DNA of 64,000 nt from positions 89,438 to 153,437 of the forward strand of contig DYGA01000001.1 in assembly GCA_020724865.1 (NCBI GenBank), read 5' to 3'. This DNA comes from Candidatus Paceibacter sp. (lineage in GTDB: Bacteria > Patescibacteriota > Patescibacteriia > S139-126). This document shows, piece after piece, positions 1 to 64,000 of this stretch. How positions within the stretch are numbered: the stretch's first letter is position 1; every line of letters starts with the position of its first letter. The notes under the pieces are model-generated. The model searched no databases, was not told the origin of the DNA, and saw only the letters and a list, made by a program, of their open reading frames with translations. Made by a program: the position numbers and the translations under genes.

Positions 1-420
1 TCTCACTAAAGTTTCAACTATTTCTAAAGCTTGCTCTCCTGTATCTGGTTGAGAAATTAATAATTCATTGATATTAACGCCAATTTTTTGTGCATACTCT
101 GGATCAAGCGCATGTTCAGCGTCAACAAAAGCAGCAATACCGCCTAATTTTTGCACTTCAGCAACTATATGTTGGGCTAAGGTTGTTTTTCCTGAAGCTT
201 CGGGTCCAAAAATTTCAATTATCCTACCTCTAGGCACACCTCCTACGCCCAAAGCAATGTCTAATGATAAACAGCCAGAGGGTACAACATCCACAACCAT
301 AGTTCGAGCTTGGCCAAATTTCATTATTGAACCTTCGCCAAATTTATTCTTAATCTGTTCCACAGCACTAGCGGCTGCTAAATGTTTATCATTTGAATTG
401 TTATCATTATTTTTTGGCAT
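1..420 (-). CDS. recA: Recombinase RecA, N-terminal part (gene runs off the window start; start codon at 418-420)
   Basis: Reverse-complement translation from 420 reads [37 protein letters not shown]...[71 protein letters not shown]. These are the canonical RecA Walker A and L1 regions. It is absent from the ORF track only because it is truncated by the window edge. Confidence 0.9.
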
Positions 421-437
421 ATTTTATTTATAAAAAA

Positions 438-1121
438 TTAATTAAATATTTCTGTTCGCCACATTACTCTAACAAATTCTTCTTTAATTGGTCCATTCTT
501 TTTAATAGCTTTAATCTTTAAAATATTAACCCCTGGTTGTAAATCAATTTCTTCTGTAAATAAACCGTTATTGACCGGGACTAATACATTATTAACCATA
601 ACTTCTACTTCTGGGTCTGTTTTACCACTTAAAATAATAGTCGGCACCTCTGTTATAAGATTATCAGTTGGATAATAAATACTCAACTCAGGAGGCATAA
701 AATAAGCCTTAGCCTGCCAACCAATATAACCGATCAATAAAACTAGCAAAAAAACTATTAAAAAATTCCGAATAAACTTAGGCAAAATTATAAAATTTGA
801 TGAAGGTAATGGTAAAGTTTTTTGGAGGCTATTAATGCTACTGGTCGTAAATGAAACTTTGCTTTGTTCATATTTTTTTTCAACTCTTGTCGGATCAAGT
901 TTTACCTCAGAAGCATAACGACGTAAAAAATTTTTTATATAAACTTCACCGGGCAATTTCAACCAATCTTCTGCTTCAATCGCAGTTAAATACTTTTCAG
1001 GAATTGATGTGCGTCTACTTAATTGAGCTAAGCTTAAACCAGCTTCCTGTCTTTTTTTCTTCAATAAATCTCCTAAATTACTACTTTCGTTTTTTATTTT
1101 TTTAACCGTAAATGAAACCAT
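438..1121 (-). CDS. RodZ-like protein: N-terminal XRE-type helix-turn-helix, one TM helix, C-terminal extracytoplasmic domain
   Basis: HTH motif LGDLLKKKRQEAGLSLAQLSRRTSIPEKYLTAIE, a hydrophobic segment FLIVFLLVLLIGYIGW, then a beta-rich C-terminal domain. This is the RodZ (DUF4115-like) architecture. Confidence 0.6.
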   Translation of the reverse strand: MVSFTVKKIKNESSNLGDLLKKKRQEAGLSLAQLSRRTSIPEKYLTAIEAEDWLKLPGEVYIKNFLRRYASEVKLDPTRVEKKYEQSKVSFTTSSINSLQKTLPLPSSNFIILPKFIRNFLIVFLLVLLIGYIGWQAKAYFMPPELSIYYPTDNLITEVPTIILSGKTDPEVEVMVNNVLVPVNNGLFTEEIDLQPGVNILKIKAIKKNGPIKEEFVRVMWRTEIFN

Positions 1122-1131
1122 AAATAAATAC

Positions 1132-3342
1132 TTACTCCTTATTTAATTCTTGTTTTTCAGAATAATTTTGCTCTAACTCATTTTCTACATCCATCTCATA
1201 TTCATCACGTGATATCAATACTTCTCTGGGTTTAGCACCATCTCCAGGACCAACCACACCCTCATTTTCCAATAAATCTAACAATCTAGCCGCCCTGGAA
1301 TACCCCACTCTTAATCTTCTTTGTAAATAAGAAGCTGAAGCCTTTTGCGCTTGAATTACTAAATTTCTAGCTTCATCAAGTAAATCATCTTCGTTACTAC
1401 CATAATCCAAACCATTGATACCTTTGTGCTTCTTTTCAGTAATTGTTTGATCATATTCAACTTCAGTGCCATTTTGATTTTTTATATATTCCGTAATCCG
1501 ATTTATTTCTTCATCTGACACTAAGGCTGATTGCAAACGTTTTGGTTTTGATAAATCTGCTGAAATATAAAGCATGTCACCTTTACCCAATAATTTTTCC
1601 GCGCCCGAACTATCCAAAATAGTTCTAGAATCAGTTTGCGAGGCGACGGCAAAAGCAATCCGAGTAGTAATATTTGCTTTAATGAGTCCAGTAATAACAT
1701 TAACTGATGGTCGTTGAGTTGCCAATATCAAATGAATGCCAACCGCTCGGGCCATTTGGGCTAACCTAATAATAGCAGCTTCTACTTCCTGGGCAGCCAC
1801 CGACATTAGATCAGCTAACTCGTCAATAATGATCACAATATATGGCATTTTTTCATTGGGAAAATCTTGATTATATCCAGCAATATTTTTATGTTTAGTC
1901 TGTGATAATTTAACATACCTTTGATCCATTTCAGCAACTGCCCATTTTAAAGCATTAATAGTTTTTTGTACATCTGTTATCACTGGCGTATAAAGATAAG
2001 GCAAATCATTATAGGCAGATAATTCCACTCGCTTGGGGTCTACCAAAATAAAACGCAAATCTTCAGGATTATTTTGATAAAGTAAACTAACAATAATTGT
2101 ATTGATACAAACTGATTTACCGCTGCCAGTGGCTCCAGCTATCAATAAATGAGGCATTTTATCTAAATTAGCCGTCCAAACTTTACCGGCCACATCCTTG
2201 CCGAGGCCAATGGTTAAATTGCTTTGCCTGGTGGTAAATTCTTTAGAAGTAATAACCTCGCGTAAGGATACGGTGGCAATAGATTCATTGGGCACTTCAA
2301 TGCCAACTAATGATTTCCCCGGAATTGGCGCCTCAATTCTTATGGGATGGGCTGCCAAAGCTAAAGCCAAATCATTATGTAAAGCAGTGATACTAGCTAA
2401 TTTCACTCCTTCCACTGGTCGCAGGGTATATTGAGTTACGGTAGGGCCGACACTAACTTCACCCATTTCAACCTCAATACCAAAATTTTGCAATGCTTTT
2501 TTAATTTTTTCTTTATTAGCTTGAATATCACCGCTAGTTGGTTTAGATCTAGTAGGATTAAGTAGATTAATTGGTAACTCAATTTTAACTGATTTTTTTG
2601 GCACAACAATTAACTCGGCTTGTTCGCCTTGATTTAAATTTAATTCTTTTTTGGAAAATTCAATCTCTGTTGCATTATCTGTCAATTCGTCACTAATGGG
2701 AGTTGTTTCATCCTCTTCTTCATCTTTAACATCTCTGGTTAGGCGATCATCACGATGACTAAAATGAAACCACCAGGAAGAAATTTTTTCTCTCCATAAA
2801 ATTAAATTATCAAACTTAACTAAAATAGATTGAAAAGAGGTATTAAATGTTAAAAATAAACCAATTAAAAGTAAAGCTATTAAAACAATAATAGTTGCCC
2901 AAAAACCAAATAATTTAAAAAGTGGCCATGTCACCAACCAACCAAACCAACCGCCTCCAGCGCCATTAATTAAATTTTGAAATGACATTAATTCATAATC
3001 ACGACTAACATGCAATAAACCAAGCAATGCTAAAAAAAATAAAACTAAACCTAAATAATGATTGGGCTTAACACCAAAACGTTCGCTGTCGATAAATAAA
3101 AAACCAACCAATAAAAAAATAAAAGGAAATAAAAAATAAAGCTTACCAAAAAAATATTTTAAAATTTTTAGTAAATAAATACCTACTACACCTGCCGAAT
3201 CAAATAAACTTAAAATCAATAAAGTGGATAGTAATAATACAAAAACAACTCCGATTGATTTTTTTGTTTCCGGAGATAAATGAAAGTTATTAGTCCAAGT
3301 AAATAATTTACTACCACTAAGATTATATTTTCTTTTTTTCAT
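1132..3342 (-). CDS. ftsK: DNA translocase FtsK/SpoIIIE
   Basis: N-terminal polytopic membrane region, linker, and a C-terminal motor domain with Walker A LIAGATGSGKSVCINTIIVSLL and the FtsK gamma-like tail. Confidence 0.9.
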   Translation of the reverse strand: MKKRKYNLSGSKLFTWTNNFHLSPETKKSIGVVFVLLLSTLLILSLFDSAGVVGIYLLKILKYFFGKLYFLFPFIFLLVGFLFIDSERFGVKPNHYLGLVLFFLALLGLLHVSRDYELMSFQNLINGAGGGWFGWLVTWPLFKLFGFWATIIVLIALLLIGLFLTFNTSFQSILVKFDNLILWREKISSWWFHFSHRDDRLTRDVKDEEEDETTPISDELTDNATEIEFSKKELNLNQGEQAELIVVPKKSVKIELPINLLNPTRSKPTSGDIQANKEKIKKALQNFGIEVEMGEVSVGPTVTQYTLRPVEGVKLASITALHNDLALALAAHPIRIEAPIPGKSLVGIEVPNESIATVSLREVITSKEFTTRQSNLTIGLGKDVAGKVWTANLDKMPHLLIAGATGSGKSVCINTIIVSLLYQNNPEDLRFILVDPKRVELSAYNDLPYLYTPVITDVQKTINALKWAVAEMDQRYVKLSQTKHKNIAGYNQDFPNEKMPYIVIIIDELADLMSVAAQEVEAAIIRLAQMARAVGIHLILATQRPSVNVITGLIKANITTRIAFAVASQTDSRTILDSSGAEKLLGKGDMLYISADLSKPKRLQSALVSDEEINRITEYIKNQNGTEVEYDQTITEKKHKGINGLDYGSNEDDLLDEARNLVIQAQKASASYLQRRLRVGYSRAARLLDLLENEGVVGPGDGAKPREVLISRDEYEMDVENELEQNYSEKQELNKE

Positions 3343-3427
3343 AAAAATCCGAATCTATTACTTGAATATTATAACAAATTAAACGATTTTCAAAAAGATA
3401 ACTGAATAAAATATTTGTCCGCCCTGC

Positions 3428-4300
3428 TTAGGTTATTTCAACTTTTTCTAAATTAATATTTTGTCCCATAAAATTCTTGGCAATATCATTTAAATGAGGA
3501 GTGAGATCGGAAACAAAATATCTAATCTGCTTACGTTTTGACAATGAACGGTCAATATCTGGATTACTCAACAAAAAATCTTTTAATTCCTTGGCTACCT
3601 GTAAAGCCGGGTTTATAATTTTGGCATTTTTCATTTTGGCTGAAATTAAATCATAAATTATTGGATAATGTGTACAACCTAAAATTAAAGTATCAATTTG
3701 TTCTTTTTTTAATGGTTGTAAATATTGTTTGATGATTTTCACTGCTTCGGATTTATAAATATAATTTTCCTCAATCAAAGGTACAAGTAAAGGTGCGATT
3801 TGATAAAATATTTTAATTTTTTGATCTGCAGTTTTTTTTATTTGTTGCTGCCGTCGAACAAAAGCGGGAACATTGATATTGCTGTCTGTTATATTTTCTT
3901 TGCCATGTAAATTTAAAACTTTTAATTCCTTAGTAAAAGCGTTGGAACTGATGGTTGCTCTAGTAGCAATGACGCCAATTCTACCTGATTTAGTAACTTG
4001 TAAAGCAGCCCGCAAAGCTGGTTGAATTACCCCAAAAATTGGGACTGGAAAATTATTTCGCAAATTTTCTAAAGCAACAGCGGAAACTGTATTACAAGCA
4101 ACGACAATTATTTTTGCTCCCATTTTAATTAAAAAATTAGCATCTTCTTGAGCATATTGGTTTATTAAAGCCGATGATCTATTGCCATATGGCACCCTAG
4201 CTGTATCACCAAAATATACTAAATCATAAAAAGGTAATAATCTTTTTATCTCTTTTAATACCGTCAAACCGCCTATCCCAGAATCAAAAATACCGATCAT
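3428..4300 (-). CDS. murI: Glutamate racemase
   Basis: IGIFDSGIGGLTV, ACNTVSAV and GCTHYP motifs. Confidence 0.85.
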   Translation of the reverse strand: MIGIFDSGIGGLTVLKEIKRLLPFYDLVYFGDTARVPYGNRSSALINQYAQEDANFLIKMGAKIIVVACNTVSAVALENLRNNFPVPIFGVIQPALRAALQVTKSGRIGVIATRATISSNAFTKELKVLNLHGKENITDSNINVPAFVRRQQQIKKTADQKIKIFYQIAPLLVPLIEENYIYKSEAVKIIKQYLQPLKKEQIDTLILGCTHYPIIYDLISAKMKNAKIINPALQVAKELKDFLLSNPDIDRSLSKRKQIRYFVSDLTPHLNDIAKNFMGQNINLEKVEIT

Positions 4301-28920: not shown

Positions 28921-29032
28921 AGTTCCCGCGCCGACCTACTTTCCCCAGATGAGTATCATCGGCGCTGATAGGCTTAACTTCCGTGTTCGGAATGAGAACG
29001 GGTGTGGCCCTATCGCTGTAGGCACGGGAACT
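28921..29032 (-). rRNA. rrf: 5S rRNA
   Basis: Minus-sense agttcccgtgcctacagcgatagggccacacccgttctcattccgaacacggaagttaagcct…ggcgcgggaact. Helix I closes the ends. Confidence 0.9.
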
Positions 29033-29079
29033 ATATATCTTATTTATAATTAAATAACTAAATAATTAGTCAATACAAT

Positions 29080-32234
<3,155 letters not shown>

Positions 32235-35878: not shown

Positions 35879-35983
35879 ATTGTCTTTTTTTTGAGTGCTA
35901 ACAAAGTAGCATAGCAAAAAAAATTTTACTTGTCAAGAGTAAAAAATTTAGTTAGATTAATCTTAAATAATTAATCATAATAT

Positions 35984-37501
35984 ATGCAATTAATAGTTCA
36001 ACCAACACCTTTAGAAAAAATTAAAGCTGACCTATTGGTAGTTAATACTTTTGCCGGCGATACCAAGCCCAATGGCGGCACTGGAGCGGTAGATAAAAAA
36101 TTGCATGGGGCAATAAGTAAAAAAATTAAAAGTATAAATTTCTTAGGTAAAAATGCAGGCGATTATTTCTTATTAGATAATCATCAATCAACTGGCCCTA
36201 AACAAATTATGGTTATATCTTTAGGTGAAAGAAAAAATTTTTCTTTGGATGTAATTAGAAAAGTTGCTGCTTTGTCACTCCTCGAAGGTAAAAAACAAAA
36301 TGCAAAAATTATTACTACTATTTTACACGGTGCCGGTAATGGTGGCCAAAACGCTCAACAGTGCGCCCAAAGTTTAACTGAGGGTATATTGCTAAGTAAT
36401 TATCACTTTGATAAATATTTAAACGAACAGAAAAAAATAAACCGAATCAATAAAATAAAAAAAATAATAATTAGTCAGAGAAATAAAAAAAATTTAACAG
36501 CAATCAAACAAGGTATAAAATTGGGCACAATTTTTGCTGAGGGACAAAATTTTGCCCGTGACTTAGTCAATGAACCAGGTCTTACCATGGACCCAAAAGT
36601 CTTGGCCGATACTGCCAAAAATATTGCTGCAAAGAATAAAAATATATCCGTTAAAATTTTTACACAAACAGACATTGCCAAATTGGGTATGAACGCTTTT
36701 TTGGCTGTAGCTGCGGGCAGTGAAAAAAATCCTTATTTTATTCATCTTACTTATCAACCGCAAACTAAACCTCAGCGAAAAATTGTTGTTGTTGGCAAAA
36801 GTATAACTTTTGACTCCGGAGGATTGTCACTAAAACCGGCTGATAGTATGACGACAATGAAATGCGATATGGCTGGCGGAGCAGCTGTTTTGGGTTTATT
36901 TTCAGTGCTATCTAAGCTTCAACCAAACGTTGAAATACATGGGCTACTGGCTGCTTGTGAAAACATGCCATCGGGTTCAGCAATCAGAGTGGGTGATGTT
37001 GTCCAAGCAATGAATGGAAAAACTATTGAAATTTTGAATACTGATGCTGAAGGTAGATTGACCTTGGCTGATGCCCTAACTTATGCGGAAAAATTAAAAC
37101 CAGATTTTATAATTGATCTGGCTACCTTAACCGGTGCGGCAATTGTAGCTTTGGGAGAAAACATCGCCGCTCTGATGACTGACAATAAAGAATTGGAAAA
37201 TAAACTTATTAAAGCTGGGGAATCAACCGGAGAAAAAATTTGGCCATTACCTCTGGAAAAAAATTATCTCTCACATATTAAAAGCAATGTGGCTGATATA
37301 CAAAATGTTGGTAAAGGTAAGGGCGTAGCTGGCACAATTGCGGCAGGATTATTTTTACAGCAGTTCGTAAAAAAGACTCCGTGGGCACATTTAGATATAG
37401 CTGGCCCGGCTTGGACTGAAGATAAATCTATTCCTTATTTAACGGTTGGTGGAAGCGGTTGGGGTGTAAGGTTATTGCTTGATTATATAAAAAATTTATA
37501 A
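35984..37501 (+). CDS. pepA: Leucyl aminopeptidase (M17 family)
   Basis: NTDAEGRL, the MKCDMAGGAAV and GKSITFDSGG metal-site motifs. Confidence 0.9.
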   Translation: MQLIVQPTPLEKIKADLLVVNTFAGDTKPNGGTGAVDKKLHGAISKKIKSINFLGKNAGDYFLLDNHQSTGPKQIMVISLGERKNFSLDVIRKVAALSLLEGKKQNAKIITTILHGAGNGGQNAQQCAQSLTEGILLSNYHFDKYLNEQKKINRINKIKKIIISQRNKKNLTAIKQGIKLGTIFAEGQNFARDLVNEPGLTMDPKVLADTAKNIAAKNKNISVKIFTQTDIAKLGMNAFLAVAAGSEKNPYFIHLTYQPQTKPQRKIVVVGKSITFDSGGLSLKPADSMTTMKCDMAGGAAVLGLFSVLSKLQPNVEIHGLLAACENMPSGSAIRVGDVVQAMNGKTIEILNTDAEGRLTLADALTYAEKLKPDFIIDLATLTGAAIVALGENIAALMTDNKELENKLIKAGESTGEKIWPLPLEKNYLSHIKSNVADIQNVGKGKGVAGTIAAGLFLQQFVKKTPWAHLDIAGPAWTEDKSIPYLTVGGSGWGVRLLLDYIKNL

Positions 37502-46885: not shown

Positions 46886-48370
<1,485 letters not shown>

Positions 48371-48416
48371 AGTGAGAATTGATTGATCTCAAAATATGAG
48401 ATCTGACTCTCAAAAG

Positions 48417-60591: not shown

Positions 60592-61857
60592 TTATTGTTT
60601 TGCTTTCATGCTGTCTACAATTCTTTGCACCGCCAAAATAAACGAAGCGGTTCTTAAATCAACTTGTTCATCCTGTTGAATCTGCCAAATATCAGTAAAA
60701 GCATGTTGCATAATTTGACCAAGTTTTTGATTTACTTCTTTTTCTGTCCAATATTGGTTCTGTTGATTTTGTAACCATTCAAAATAAGAAACAGTTACTC
60801 CACCAGCATTTGCTAAAACGTCAGGAACGATTATTTTTTTCTTTTTTAATAATTTTTTTTCGGCTAACGGAGAAACTCCACCGTTGGCCATTTCTAATAT
60901 TATCTTTGCCTTAATTTTATTTACATTTTTTTCATTAACAGCGTTTTCCAAAGCAGCGGGCACAATAATATCAACTGGTAATTCAAGTATTTCTTGATTA
61001 GAAATGCTTGGATAATTTTTACAATCACACACGCTACCAATACAATAACAACCATTTTTAAACCCTTTCTCTTTTTTTTGCTTAATTAAATTGTCTGGAT
61101 CCATGCCTTTTAATTTTTTGTCAAATATTCCGCCTTGGGAATCAGAAACCGCTACAATTCGCCAACCAGCTTGGTGTAAATATTTAGCAATATAATAACC
61201 CACATTACCAAAACCTTGAATGGCTATGGTGGATTTTTTTGGATTTAATTTTAACTTTTTGGCTAAATCTGAAAATATATAAAACCCTCCTAAACCAGTG
61301 GCTTCAGTCCTGCCCAAAGAACCTCCGTAAGCCAAGGGTTTGCCAGTAACCACGCCCAAATTACCATCACCTTTTAATTGGTTGTATTCATCTGCCATCC
61401 AAGCCATTATTTGCGGATTGGTATTGACGTCGGGCGCTGGTATATCAAGATTAGGACCAATAAAATCTTTAAAAGCTCTAATATAACCACGAGATAACCT
61501 TTCTAATTCATAAACAGATAATTTTTTAGGATCAACGGTTATTCCGCCCTTACCTCCACCTAAAGGAATGTCTACTACCGCAGTTTTTATCGCCATCCAA
61601 AAAGATAGGGCTTTAACTTCATTTAAATTGGTTTGGGGATGAAATCTAATTCCGCCTTTAAAGGGACCGCGAGCATTATTGTATTGAACCCGATAACCGG
61701 TAAAAACTTTAATTCTACCGTCATCCATTCTAATCGGAATAGCAGCTTCTAAAATACGTTGCGGCTGTTTTAATTGCTCCAAAATATCTGCCGATATATT
61801 TAAATATTTCTCTATATTTTGTAGCTGAACAAGAGCATTCTTAAATAAATTTGTCAT
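60592..61857 (-). CDS. gdhA: Glutamate dehydrogenase (Glu/Leu/Phe/Val dehydrogenase family)
   Basis: GGGKGG active-site region and Rossmann GFGNVG. Confidence 0.9.
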
Positions 61858-61869
61858 ATTATTAGTTTA

Positions 61870-62847
61870 TTATTTTTTGGCTGTTCCCCAATCTATACTA
61901 GTGCCTTTTATACCTTTAGTTTGCTGAAGATACTTATAAGCTTGCAGGGCGGCTTTGGCGCCTTCGCCGCCAGAAATAATTATTTGTTTATATTCAATAT
62001 CGGTAACGTCACCAGCAGCAAAAATTCCCGGGGTCTTAGTTTCGCAATTTTTATTGGTTTTAATCTGTTTATGATCGTCAAATTCTACCAAATCACCTAC
62101 CCATTCAGTTTTAGCAATATGCCCTATCTCTACAAACAAACCATCAACTGACAAATCTTTCAACGGCTGATTGTTTGTATCTACAAGCTCAATAGCTTCA
62201 ACTTTATTATTTCCTTTTATTCTAGCTATATTTGTGTTATATAAAATTTCTATATTAGAAATTTTTTTTACCCTATCAACTAAAATTTCATCGCCTCGAA
62301 ATTTATCACGACGATGAATTAAATAAACTTTTTTGGCTATTCTTGAAAGATATTCGGCGGCATCAAGCGCGCTATTTCCGCCGCCGATGACCGCAACATT
62401 TTTTTCTTTGAACAATGGTCCATCGCAAGTAGCGCAATAAGAAACTCCGCGTCCCTTTAATTCTTCCTCGCCAGGAACGCCAAGATCGCGCGGCGTTAAA
62501 CCAAAAGCCAAAATTATTGCCGCTGCTCTATACTGGTTGCTGTTAGTTGTAATAATAAAATCTCCGCCGTCTTTTTCTATTTTTTTAGCTTCTTCTGACT
62601 TCAGAATTGCACCAAATTTTTTTGCGTCTGCCAAAAAACGATTCATTAAATCAAAACCGTCTACTAAACCAACTCCGGGGTAATTTTCAATTTCTGTTGT
62701 TAAAGCAGCTTGCCCACCAACGTCTTTAGAAATAATTAGAGTTTTTAAAGCCCGCCTTGAAGTATAAATTGCAGCTGTCAATCCGGCTGCTCCAGCACCG
62801 ACAATAATAACATCAAAATATTCAGGAACACTTGTTTTACTATTCAT
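61870..62847 (-). CDS. trxB: Thioredoxin-disulfide reductase
   Basis: FAD GAGAAG, redox CATCDG and NAD(P) GGGNSA motifs. Confidence 0.9.
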
Positions 62848-62866
62848 AAATATGATTTTATATGGC

Positions 62867-63187
62867 TTAAAGCGCTTTGTCCAAACGCTCAGCTATTGCT
62901 TCTTTGGGATGAGCCCCTATTAATTGATCAACAACTTGTCCATTTTTAAAAATTAGCAAAGATGGAATACTCATAATGCCATAATTTTGAGAAGTAACAG
63001 GATTTTCATCTACATTTAATTTTCCTACCTTGGCTTTTCCTAAATACTCTTGGGCAATTTGTTCCACGATTGGACCAACGATACGACAAGGACCGCACCA
63101 GGGAGCCCAAAAATCAACTAACACCACTTGGTCACTTTGTAAAACTTCTTTATTAAAATTTTGATCGGTTAATGTTATTTCGGACAT
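62867..63187 (-). CDS. trxA: Thioredoxin
   Basis: WAPWCGPC active site. Confidence 0.9.
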
Positions 63188-63194
63188 ATTTTTA

Positions 63195-63458
63195 TTATAA
63201 ATTTTTAAACATTTGATTAATTAATTTTTCTAAATCTTTTTTAGCAAATTTTTTCTTATTTGTATTAAAACAATCATTAGAATAATTTAATAATAACAGT
63301 TTAGCAACAGAACGCAATGCCGAATTGGTAGCAGCTAACTGCTGTAATACTTCAGAAATGTCACGATCCTCATGGATCATTTTTTCTATACCTTGTATTT
63401 GACCAGCAATCTTACGCAAATTACTTAAAATATAATTTTTATCACATTTTTTTTCCAT
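63195..63458 (-). CDS. CsoR/RcnR/FrmR-family (DUF156) metal- or stress-sensing transcriptional repressor
   Basis: [43 protein letters not shown]… and a Cys near the C-terminus. This is the four-helix-bundle repressor pattern. Confidence 0.65.
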
Positions 63459-63484
63459 ATACTATATACTAGTATATAGTATAT
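63457..63484. promoter_or_regulatory. Perfect 28-bp palindrome ATATACTATATACTAGTATATAGTATAT overlapping the regulator's start codon; candidate operator
   Basis: Exact dyad symmetry about ctag. TACT…AGTA half-sites resemble RcnR/FrmR-type operators. Confidence 0.55.
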
Positions 63485-63494
63485 AAAAAAATTG

Positions 63495-64000
63495 TCAAGT
63501 GTTTTCCTCGGCTTTATCAACCTCGTCTTCTATTTCCCCAACCAAATGTTCTAAAACATCTTCCAACGACACTAAACCAATTATCTCTTGTTGGCTGTTT
63601 CTGGTAACCAAAGCAATATGTTCTTTTAATTTTATCATTTTACGTAAAACAACATCTATTTTTTCGTTGTTATCAAAAAAAGATATTTTTCTAACTAAGT
63701 TTTGCAGGGGCGTTTCACGATTGTCGCTATTTAAAATTTTCATAATGTCATGAACGTGGACATAACCAATAATATTATTTTCATTGTCAATATAAACAGG
63801 AAACCTTGAGTAACCTGACTGAGCTACAAAATATGCTATGCTGTCTACCGGGACCTCACCATTTAAAAAAACAACTTTATATTTAGGGGTCATTACTTCT
63901 TTTACCGAAATATCGTTTAATAAAAAAATTTTTTCAATTAATACGTGCTCTCGGTAATCAATGTGTCCACTTTCTACACCTAATCGAGCTAAAGCCTTTA
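63495..64000 (-). CDS. CBS-pair + CorC_HlyC transporter-associated domain protein (CNNM/CorC family), 5'-truncated by the window end
   Basis: The ORF stays open upstream of the listed Met (…EKIFLLNDISVKEVMTPKYKV matches the family's …VREVMTPR… junction). C-terminal GLVSLEDVLEHLVGEIEDE. Confidence 0.6.
   Translation of the reverse strand, partial: KALARLGVESGHIDYREHVLIEKIFLLNDISVKEVMTPKYKVVFLNGEVPVDSIAYFVAQSGYSRFPVYIDNENNIIGYVHVHDIMKILNSDNRETPLQNLVRKISFFDNNEKIDVVLRKMIKLKEHIALVTRNSQQEIIGLVSLEDVLEHLVGEIEDEVDKAEENT

Follow-up and report, generated by a model that had tools for sequence, protein, structure and literature searches.

A probable thiol-switched CsoR-family repressor at the head of a thioredoxin operon in Patescibacteria

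The window (the whole 64-kb stretch of DNA analyzed here) encodes an 87-residue protein of the CsoR/RcnR family that is probably an autoregulated, thiol-switched repressor of its own operon, regulator-trxA-trxB-gdhA. A broader and more tentative proposal, to which we give slightly less than an even chance, is that the Patescibacteria (CPR) employ a previously unrecognized class of the CsoR family as a dedicated regulator of the thioredoxin system. In this class, the attacking cysteine of a disulfide-stress switch would have moved from helix 2 (the X position) to the N-terminal arm, the switch would be reset by thioredoxin, and the regulator would be cotranscribed with an NADPH-generating dehydrogenase (GdhA, or glucose-6-phosphate dehydrogenase, G6PD, in one lineage). 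In the window's lineage, a single C-tract site would have given way to an operator of two interleaved TACT-N7-AGTA sites that carry no G/C tract. The genes concerned are as follows.

63195..63458, minus strand: CsoR/RcnR-family (PF02583) repressor, 87 aa, by Pfam match
62867..63187, minus strand: trxA, thioredoxin with a WCGPC active site (TIGR01068, 130 bits, cut-off 96.8)
61870..62847, minus strand: trxB, thioredoxin-disulfide reductase with a CATC redox center and an HRRDKFR motif (TIGR01292, 360.5 bits, cut-off 343.45)
60592..61857, minus strand: gdhA, Glu/Leu/Phe/Val dehydrogenase of the glutamate dehydrogenase type, last in the string
ending at 63495, minus strand: CNNM/CBS-domain gene upstream of the regulator

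The regulator, trxA, trxB, and gdhA are all carried on the minus strand with intergenic gaps of 7, 19, and 12 nt, and the four genes thus form one tight string. The identities of TrxA and TrxB are secured by scores above the NCBIfam equivalog cut-offs, and the HRRDKFR motif of TrxB is presumably of the NADPH-binding type, as in E. coli TrxR. The preliminary description had placed trxA-trxB-gdhA behind the regulator on the same strand, a reading that is borne out by the profile matches and by the same string in relatives. The gdhA gene holds the same position in the related loci L001, L004, L007, L009, L023, and L027, and trxA follows the regulator in every locus examined, including six distant ones with unrelated flanks. 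The promoter and operator elements ahead of the string are as follows.

63493..63498, minus strand: predicted -35 hexamer TTGACA, in which the upstream CNNM/CBS gene has its TGA stop codon
63471..63476, minus strand: predicted -10 hexamer TATACT, composed of the second TACT tetramer and the two preceding bases
63457-63484: perfect 28-bp palindrome ATATACTATATACTAGTATATAGTATAT, exactly self-complementary
63460..63481, no strand assigned: core operator TACT-ATA-TACT-AGTA-TAT-AGTA, with tetramers conserved across relatives
TACTATATACTAGTATATAGTA: putative repressor-binding operator DNA of the window

The combination TTGACA-16-TATACT (63498..63471, minus strand) is the top sigma-70-like match in the 60-64 kb region of the window, agreeing at 11 of 12 positions. 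The left arm of the palindrome takes in the -10 box, and the ATG comes directly after the palindrome, the final two minus-strand bases of the palindrome being the A and T of this ATG (63458-63456); the overlap with the regulator start codon that had been claimed for the palindrome is thereby upheld. Transcription is predicted to start at approximately 63463-63465, which would give a leader of 5-7 nt that carries no Shine-Dalgarno sequence. A second promoter-like match, TGGACA-17-TAAAAT (62855-62883, minus strand, 10 of 12 positions), falls on the 3' end of trxA, immediately ahead of trxB; it could mark an internal promoter, or it could have arisen by chance in AT-rich sequence.

The perfect 28-bp palindrome of the preliminary description is exactly self-complementary at 63457-63484. 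With an arm of 14, it is the longest zero-spacer perfect palindrome in the window (the runner-up has an arm of 9), and an arm of this length is reached in 0 of 200 dinucleotide-preserving shuffles of the window. No second copy occurs in the 64-kb window at up to three mismatches (a match is seen in 0 of 100 shuffles), so that the palindrome is a single-copy element there rather than a recurrent one. Neither the palindrome nor its 22-bp core has an extra copy in the window at this tolerance or a copy elsewhere in ~136 kb of related loci. The core comprises two interleaved TACT-N7-AGTA sites, 63460-63474 and 63467-63481, both of which are matched by the pattern TACYNNNNNNNRGTA. The likeness to RcnR/FrmR half-sites that had been suggested holds for the four TACT/AGTA half-sites and their N7 spacing and fails for the G/C tract: the operator has G or C at only 4 positions in 22 bp, and the tract of the family, whether type 1 or type 2, is absent. 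A TAC/GTA dyad that overlaps the promoter of its own operon, as expected from the dyad rule (PMC3902906), is present.

The relaxed pattern TACYNNNNNNNRGTA has two further matches in the window, with a chance expectation of 2.3; one is intragenic, and the other lies upstream of pepA. The latter, TACTTGTCAAGAGTA (35927-35941), is the sole other intergenic TACT-N7-AGTA in the window; it overlaps a TTGTCA box, and 43-57 nt separate it from the downstream plus-strand gene (35984-37501) for PepA, an M17 leucyl aminopeptidase. Since the site count is not above chance, this site may be either a coincidence or a second target. The symmetry at the operator also runs past 28 bp (63450-63492), with arms of ~19 nt and two G-T mismatches; the extension pairs a T-run at 63485-63491 with GGAAAAA of codons 1-3, whereby the promoter spacer is mirrored by part of the sequence that codes for the N terminus (Glu-Lys-Lys).

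Comparison with 12 related loci reveals which parts of this region are maintained. The TTGACA box and the four tetramers are conserved, whereas the intervening 11-12 nt are not, nor are the two N3 spacers. In every relative with enough upstream sequence, TTGACA and the first TACT are separated by a constant 11-12 nt, and the four tetramers are invariant across relatives whose regulators are 59-99% identical. The first spacer occurs as ata, aca, or gta, and the second as tat, ggt, tgt, or ggg. The exception is the group L007/L008/L016, in which the array reads TGCC-cta-TACT-GGTA-tag-GGTA and precedes a glutaredoxin gene that is followed by the regulator, trxA, trxB, and gdhA. Each close-relative locus contains exactly one array, always ahead of the operon. 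As the tetramers are kept while the spacers vary, the conserved unit is the 22-bp array and not the 28-bp palindrome. The earlier claim that the palindrome is an operator thus gains support from the phylogenetic footprint, from the overlap with the -10 box and start codon, and from the single site per locus, and it is narrowed from the full 28 bp to a 22-bp unit, TACT-N3-TACT-RGTA-N3-AGTA. On the sequence comparison, the 28-bp perfect symmetry is a local extreme of this array, with the symmetry of the spacers and flanks particular to the genome of the window.

Close relatives are few. A word-indexed search of 5.8 billion proteins returns only 12 close homologues (56-99% identical), and an exhaustive HMM search of 1.84 billion representatives returns only two clusters at E<1e-30 before scores fall to those of the generic family. 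A genome scan (one genome per species, 185,579 species) yields only four loci and the JGI metagenomes yield six, which indicates that the clade of the window is rare in databases. Related contigs of 0.56-0.72 Mb have the same gene order, and those relatives that carry labels are Patescibacteria. Three locus-carrying MAGs (L013, L014, and L015) are titled 'uncultured Gammaproteobacteria bacterium'; given their CPR-type gene content and contigs of 0.56-0.72 Mb, this label is probably wrong. In two loci, L009 and L011 (4262-4390 in each), the spacer between the regulator and trxA is 150-230 nt, compared with 7 nt in the window, and includes a ~125-nt block that is conserved between the two loci, contains the palindrome CAAAATGCATTTTG, and is absent from the window. 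A search of the L009 block against Rfam returned nothing at E<=1, and a conserved ORF is absent from the block, which may be an unknown leader or a small RNA. Elsewhere in the window, the 16S gene is ~14.7 kb away from the 23S-5S pair (28923-32224 and 46887-48371), and the 23S match, at 3141 nt, is longer than its 2925-position model, pointing to at least one insertion. Unlinked rRNA genes and 23S insertions are typical of CPR bacteria. The distance between the 16S and 23S genes, the gene order shared with the related contigs, and the labels of the relatives make a CPR bacterium the most likely source of the window.

Linkage of a regulator of this family to trxA extends to six distant homologues (L023-L028), which stand at generic-family distance from the query by score and alignment. 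Named sequences among the nearest family members belong to Candidatus Nomurabacteria, Candidatus Dojkabacteria, and a 'Patescibacteria group'. The six loci have the following cysteine patterns, linked genes, and sites.

L023: N-terminal Cys, no X Cys; trxA-trxB-gdhA; TACC-CCCACAG-GGTA
L024: N-terminal Cys, no X Cys; trxA-trxB; TACT-CCCCCCT-AGTA
L025: N-terminal Cys, no X Cys; trxA-trxB; TACC-CCCGCAT-GGTA
L026: N-terminal Cys, no X Cys; trxA-trxB; TACC-CCCTGGG-AGTA
L027: N-terminal Cys and X Cys; trxA-trxB-gdhA, with copA, cupredoxin, and copZ upstream; TACC-CCCTAGG-GGTA
L028: Z Cys only; trxA-G6PD; TACT-CCAGTAT-AGTA

The cysteine pattern of the window protein, with an N-terminal Cys and no X Cys, is therefore found in four of the six (L023-L026), and the flanks of L024, L025, and L026 are mutually unrelated genes. 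Each distant 7.2-kb locus contains exactly one TACY-N7-RGTA, located 18-30 nt before the regulator start codon and beside a TTGAC-type box. C tracts are present in the operators of these distant trxA-linked relatives, unlike in the window. These classical C-tract sites have the same N7 spacing as the interleaved sites of the window, which supports the interleaved reading and, from sequence comparison, suggests that the lineage of the window swapped the C tract for a second copy of the half-sites. In L028 (3755-5356), a lineage with a single-Cys regulator, trxA is followed by glucose-6-phosphate dehydrogenase and not by trxB-gdhA, a replacement that fits the idea of an attached NADPH source. 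The 78-residue trxA-linked group retains the Z Cys only, and a two-cysteine switch is therefore not universal. The gene for the L027 regulator, which retains an X Cys, is immediately preceded by copA (encoding a P-type ATPase that carries an HMA domain), a DsbD_2/cupredoxin gene, and copZ (1-3467), a neighborhood that may be a trace of a copper-sensing origin of the module. The regulator has its own promoter and operator, located after copZ.

The assignment of the regulator to the CsoR/RcnR family, made in the preliminary description, is firm. The 87-residue protein matches PF02583, 'Metal-sensitive transcriptional repressor', with E=1.2e-19 and 70.9 bits (cut-off 22.8) over residues 7-81, and alignments to solved relatives and fold matches agree with the profile. 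The nearest solved relatives are CstR, CsoR, InrS, and FrmR, the best being CstR of S. pneumoniae (7mq1). An AF2 monomer model (pLDDT 88) predicts helices at residues 7-29, 34-60, and 73-84, corresponding to the three-helix protomer of the family, and the top 18 Foldseek PDB fold matches of this model are all CsoR, CstR, InrS, or FrmR. In the helix-1 position of the RLxR motif (RASK in RcnR), the window protein has N-L-R-K and its relatives N-L-R-R, with the basic residues shifted (PMC3902906).

The sensing site departs from that of the family. Alignment to solved CsoR (4m1p), CstR (7mq1), and InrS (5fmn) places Ile34 at X, Tyr59 at Y, and Cys63 at Z; the positions were also read off alignments to 2hh7 and 4adz, and RcnR and FrmR models align with an offset of +1. 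The X position is Cys in solved CsoR, CstR, and InrS, and the Y position is His in metal sensors and Asn in CstR. In the AF2 monomer, Cys5 is predicted to lie in the N-terminal arm and Cys63 just beyond helix 2. All 13 aligned sequences have Cys5, Tyr59, and Cys63, and all carry Ile, Val, or Leu at X. Cys5 does not occupy the classical W position (RcnR His3) but aligns three residues past it.

No characterized fingerprint fits these residues. The x-C-H-C pattern of Cu(I)-sensing CsoR fails with Ile34 at X and Tyr59 at Y, although Cys63 is kept at Z, and the H-C-H-H pattern of RcnR (His3, Cys35, His60, His64) fails with Glu2, Ile34, Tyr59, and Cys63 in the query (+1 offset). The P-C-H-x pattern of FrmR (Pro2, Cys35) fails with Glu2 and Ile34, the protein scoring 35 bits against an NCBIfam cut-off of 133, and the x-C-x-C pattern of CstR fails because the X Cys is missing, although the Z Cys is kept and Y is not His. 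Ile at X, Tyr at Y, and the lack of Pro2 and His3 thus disfavor sensing of copper, nickel/cobalt, and formaldehyde. Metal and aldehyde sensing were rejected as candidates on this fingerprint. The preliminary description had offered thiol redox, metal, and aldehyde as kinds of control and had named a missing set of family sensing residues as grounds for refutation; formally, these grounds apply to the metal and aldehyde options, and only thiol redox survives, backed by the invariant Cys5/Cys63 pair together with the trxA linkage that is conserved across Patescibacteria.

The N-terminal Cys, located just before helix 1, goes with loss of the X Cys in the wider family. It is present in 48 of 69 X-less and 5 of 51 X-containing family sequences and, in a second set, in 22 of 26 X-less and 11 of 125 X-containing sequences; the latter is a hand count that takes in four sequences with the Cys shifted by 1-2 columns, and the sequences in these counts were drawn from the nearest of the family and are not phylogenetically independent. 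The invariance of Cys5 and Cys63, along with this association, argues for selection on a cysteine pair at the sensing site of the family.

A mechanism can be proposed on this basis. The reduced repressor would bind the 22-bp array TACT-N3-TACT-RGTA-N3-AGTA, which, by analogy with other family members, probably holds one or two tetramers; because the array covers the -10 box and the predicted transcription start, RNA polymerase would be excluded. The signal would be thiol chemistry on Cys5, in the flexible N-terminal arm, and Cys63, at Z just after helix 2. Exposure to oxidants or reactive sulfur species would join Cys5 to Cys63' of another subunit through a disulfide or polysulfide, by analogy with CstR, and the cross-linked repressor would leave the DNA, allowing thioredoxin, thioredoxin reductase, and an NAD(P)H-producing dehydrogenase to be made. 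By returning the repressor to its reduced form, thioredoxin would complete a negative feedback loop. The dehydrogenase (GdhA, or G6PD in L028) may be attached to feed thioredoxin reductase, a role hinted at by the replacement of GdhA by G6PD in L028.

The identity of the signal leaves room for two variants. A CstR-like sensor of persulfides or other reactive sulfur species, under which the thioredoxin system would be induced to clear protein persulfides, would be a sub-case of the thiol switch that differs in its signal only, and we consider it unlikely. The best solved match is CstR of S. pneumoniae (7mq1), dithiol members of the CsoR family that lack the Y His are classed as RSS sensors (PMC8643695), and TTHA1953 governs sulfur oxidation along with a thioredoxin (PMC10318464); the samples of several relatives were also taken as sulfidic or anoxic, from sample identifiers only. 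The attacking X Cys of CstR is, however, missing, and no rhodanese, persulfide dioxygenase, SQR, CoA-persulfide reductase, or TauE-type gene adjoins the regulator in the loci examined. Its neighbors are trxA, trxB, gdhA, and sometimes grx, with none for sulfide or persulfide detoxification. Very unlikely, in turn, is a sensor of Cu(I) or another thiophilic metal that uses Cys5 and Cys63 as a two-sulfur site, with thioredoxin repairing metal-induced thiol damage, even though the family is best known for sensing metals. In its favor, the regulator gene of L027 (C-C-E-C) is directly flanked upstream by copA, a cupredoxin/DsbD-like gene, and copZ and is followed downstream by trxA-trxB-gdhA, and the L027 operator TATACCCCCTAGGGGTATA resembles what we take to be the Streptomyces CsoR type. 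Yet L027 has its own promoter and operator between copZ and the regulator, and it is the exception: no metal-efflux gene (copA/copZ) adjoins the regulator in the window or in 11 of the 12 distinct contexts. His ligands for Ni or Co are absent, and the X Cys and Y His, Cu(I) ligands in every characterized CsoR, are both missing (PMC8643695). Furthermore, Cu(I) is bound by CstR without a response (PMC8643695).

Two other explanations concern the palindrome and the need for a signal. The palindrome could act as an RNA hairpin rather than as protein-binding DNA. It would then either terminate or help process the CNNM/CBS transcript, or else mask the start codon and so act on translation. The RNA fold of the window is strong (-15.9 kcal/mol, z = -6.3), and some substitutions in relatives are G-U compatible. 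In the relatives, however, z ranges from -0.5 to -1.9, no better than shuffles, and the folds are in other registers even though the tetramers are intact. The coding strand has no U-tract after the palindrome, the location of the -10 box within the left arm means that the operon transcript would start inside the palindrome, and the C-tract sites of distant relatives lie at the same place without hairpin potential. The hairpin or terminator reading, which we hold to be extremely improbable, was rejected because the fold is not conserved in relatives. A plain autorepressor that takes no signal input and buffers expression of the thioredoxin operon, with the conserved cysteines serving a structural role, is highly improbable as well. 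The single Cys of the 78-residue trxA-linked group speaks in its favor, but Cys5 and Cys63 are invariant, the N-terminal Cys goes with loss of the X Cys, and a signal response is found in every characterized family member (PMC8643695).

The thiol-switched repressor of the thioredoxin operon is thus a clear member of a known superfamily that differs from known members in the arrangement of its sensing residues, in its thioredoxin-system target, and in an unusual operator without a G tract; the first two of these differences seem to be unreported. The arrangement of regulator, operator, and trxA recurs across Patescibacteria and seems to be undescribed, no description of the module having been found within the literature searched for a link between the CsoR family and trxA/trxB, CPR, or Saccharibacteria. 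The characterized signals of the CsoR family are copper, nickel/cobalt, formaldehyde, and persulfide, all sensed via the X Cys, which is kept in all of the corresponding clusters listed in PMC8643695. The present group departs from this rule and suggests a fifth function of the fold, namely the direct regulation of the thioredoxin system. If true, this would be one of few regulator-operator-regulon assignments in Patescibacteria, organisms with very small genomes and few transcription factors in which hardly any experimental genetics has been done. The tolerance of Patescibacteria to oxygen and oxidants is a question of ecological interest. The interleaved, G-tract-free operator offers a natural test of the contributions of G-tract shape and TAC/GTA dyads to DNA recognition in the CsoR family.

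Among characterized systems, CstR (S. aureus, E. faecalis, and S. pneumoniae; PDB 7MQ1-3) shares the three-helix fold, the lack of a Y His, and the Z Cys with the window protein. In CstR, inter-protomer di-, tri-, and tetrasulfides abolish DNA binding (PMC8643695). CstR has its attacking Cys at X, where helix 2 begins, whereas the window protein and its relatives have Ile, Val, or Leu at X and the second Cys is residue 5. The operators are alike in that the CstR site is an AT-rich inverted repeat ending in ATAC...GTAT; a C/G tract is present in CstR and absent from the window. The targets of CstR are sulfurtransferases, persulfide dioxygenase, and CoA-persulfide reductase, whereas the window protein heads trxA-trxB-gdhA.

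The closest likeness in half-site is to E. coli RcnR (Ni/Co), which recognizes TACT-G6-N-AGTA, the same half-site and N7 spacing as in the window; recognition in the family depends on TAC/GTA dyads that follow a TAC-X9-GTA rule (PMC3902906). A site of the RcnR type, TACT-CCCCCCT-AGTA, is also found in the distant relative L024. RcnR sites are tandem, separate, and contain G tracts, whereas those of the window are interleaved with a 7-bp offset and have no G tract. Similar to what is proposed for the protein described here, RcnR and FrmR (formaldehyde) are autoregulated and encoded first in their operons. Both also sense with the N-terminal arm (PMC5146963), as is proposed here for the arm Cys5. 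In FrmR, this arm reaches the X site of the neighboring subunit, with the Pro2' N ~2.5-3 Å from the Cys35 S-gamma (PMC5146963). The residues differ, H-C-H-H in RcnR and P-C-H-x in FrmR compared with Glu2/Lys3, Ile34, Tyr59, and Cys63 in the window protein, and neighboring rcnA or frmA genes are absent.

The CsoR-family sox regulator of Thermus thermophilus, TTHA1953, provides another point of comparison. Its reduced form is favored for DNA binding in a cysteine-dependent manner, and the gene most strongly derepressed is that for the thioredoxin SoxW (PMC10318464). The TTHA1953 operator, TACNNTACNNNNGTANNGTA, has doubled TAC/GTA repeats like the doubled array of the window. The two differ in layout, TAC-N2-TAC-N4-GTA-N2-GTA over 20 bp in TTHA1953 and TAC-N4-TAC-N2-GTA-N4-GTA over 22 bp in the window. 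The cysteines also differ, being Cys39 and Cys68 in TTHA1953 (placed at X and Z from their positions) and Cys5 and Cys63 in the window protein. The regulon of TTHA1953 is the Sox sulfur-oxidation pathway and not trxA-trxB.

Outside the family, Spx, RsrA-SigR, and OxyR each use a cysteine switch to induce trxA/trxB, the product of which resets the switch. Spx is an RNA polymerase-binding factor, RsrA is an anti-sigma factor, and OxyR is a LysR activator. The logic of these systems is the same as that proposed here for the CsoR-family repressor, whereas their folds and mechanisms are unrelated to promoter occlusion by a CsoR fold.
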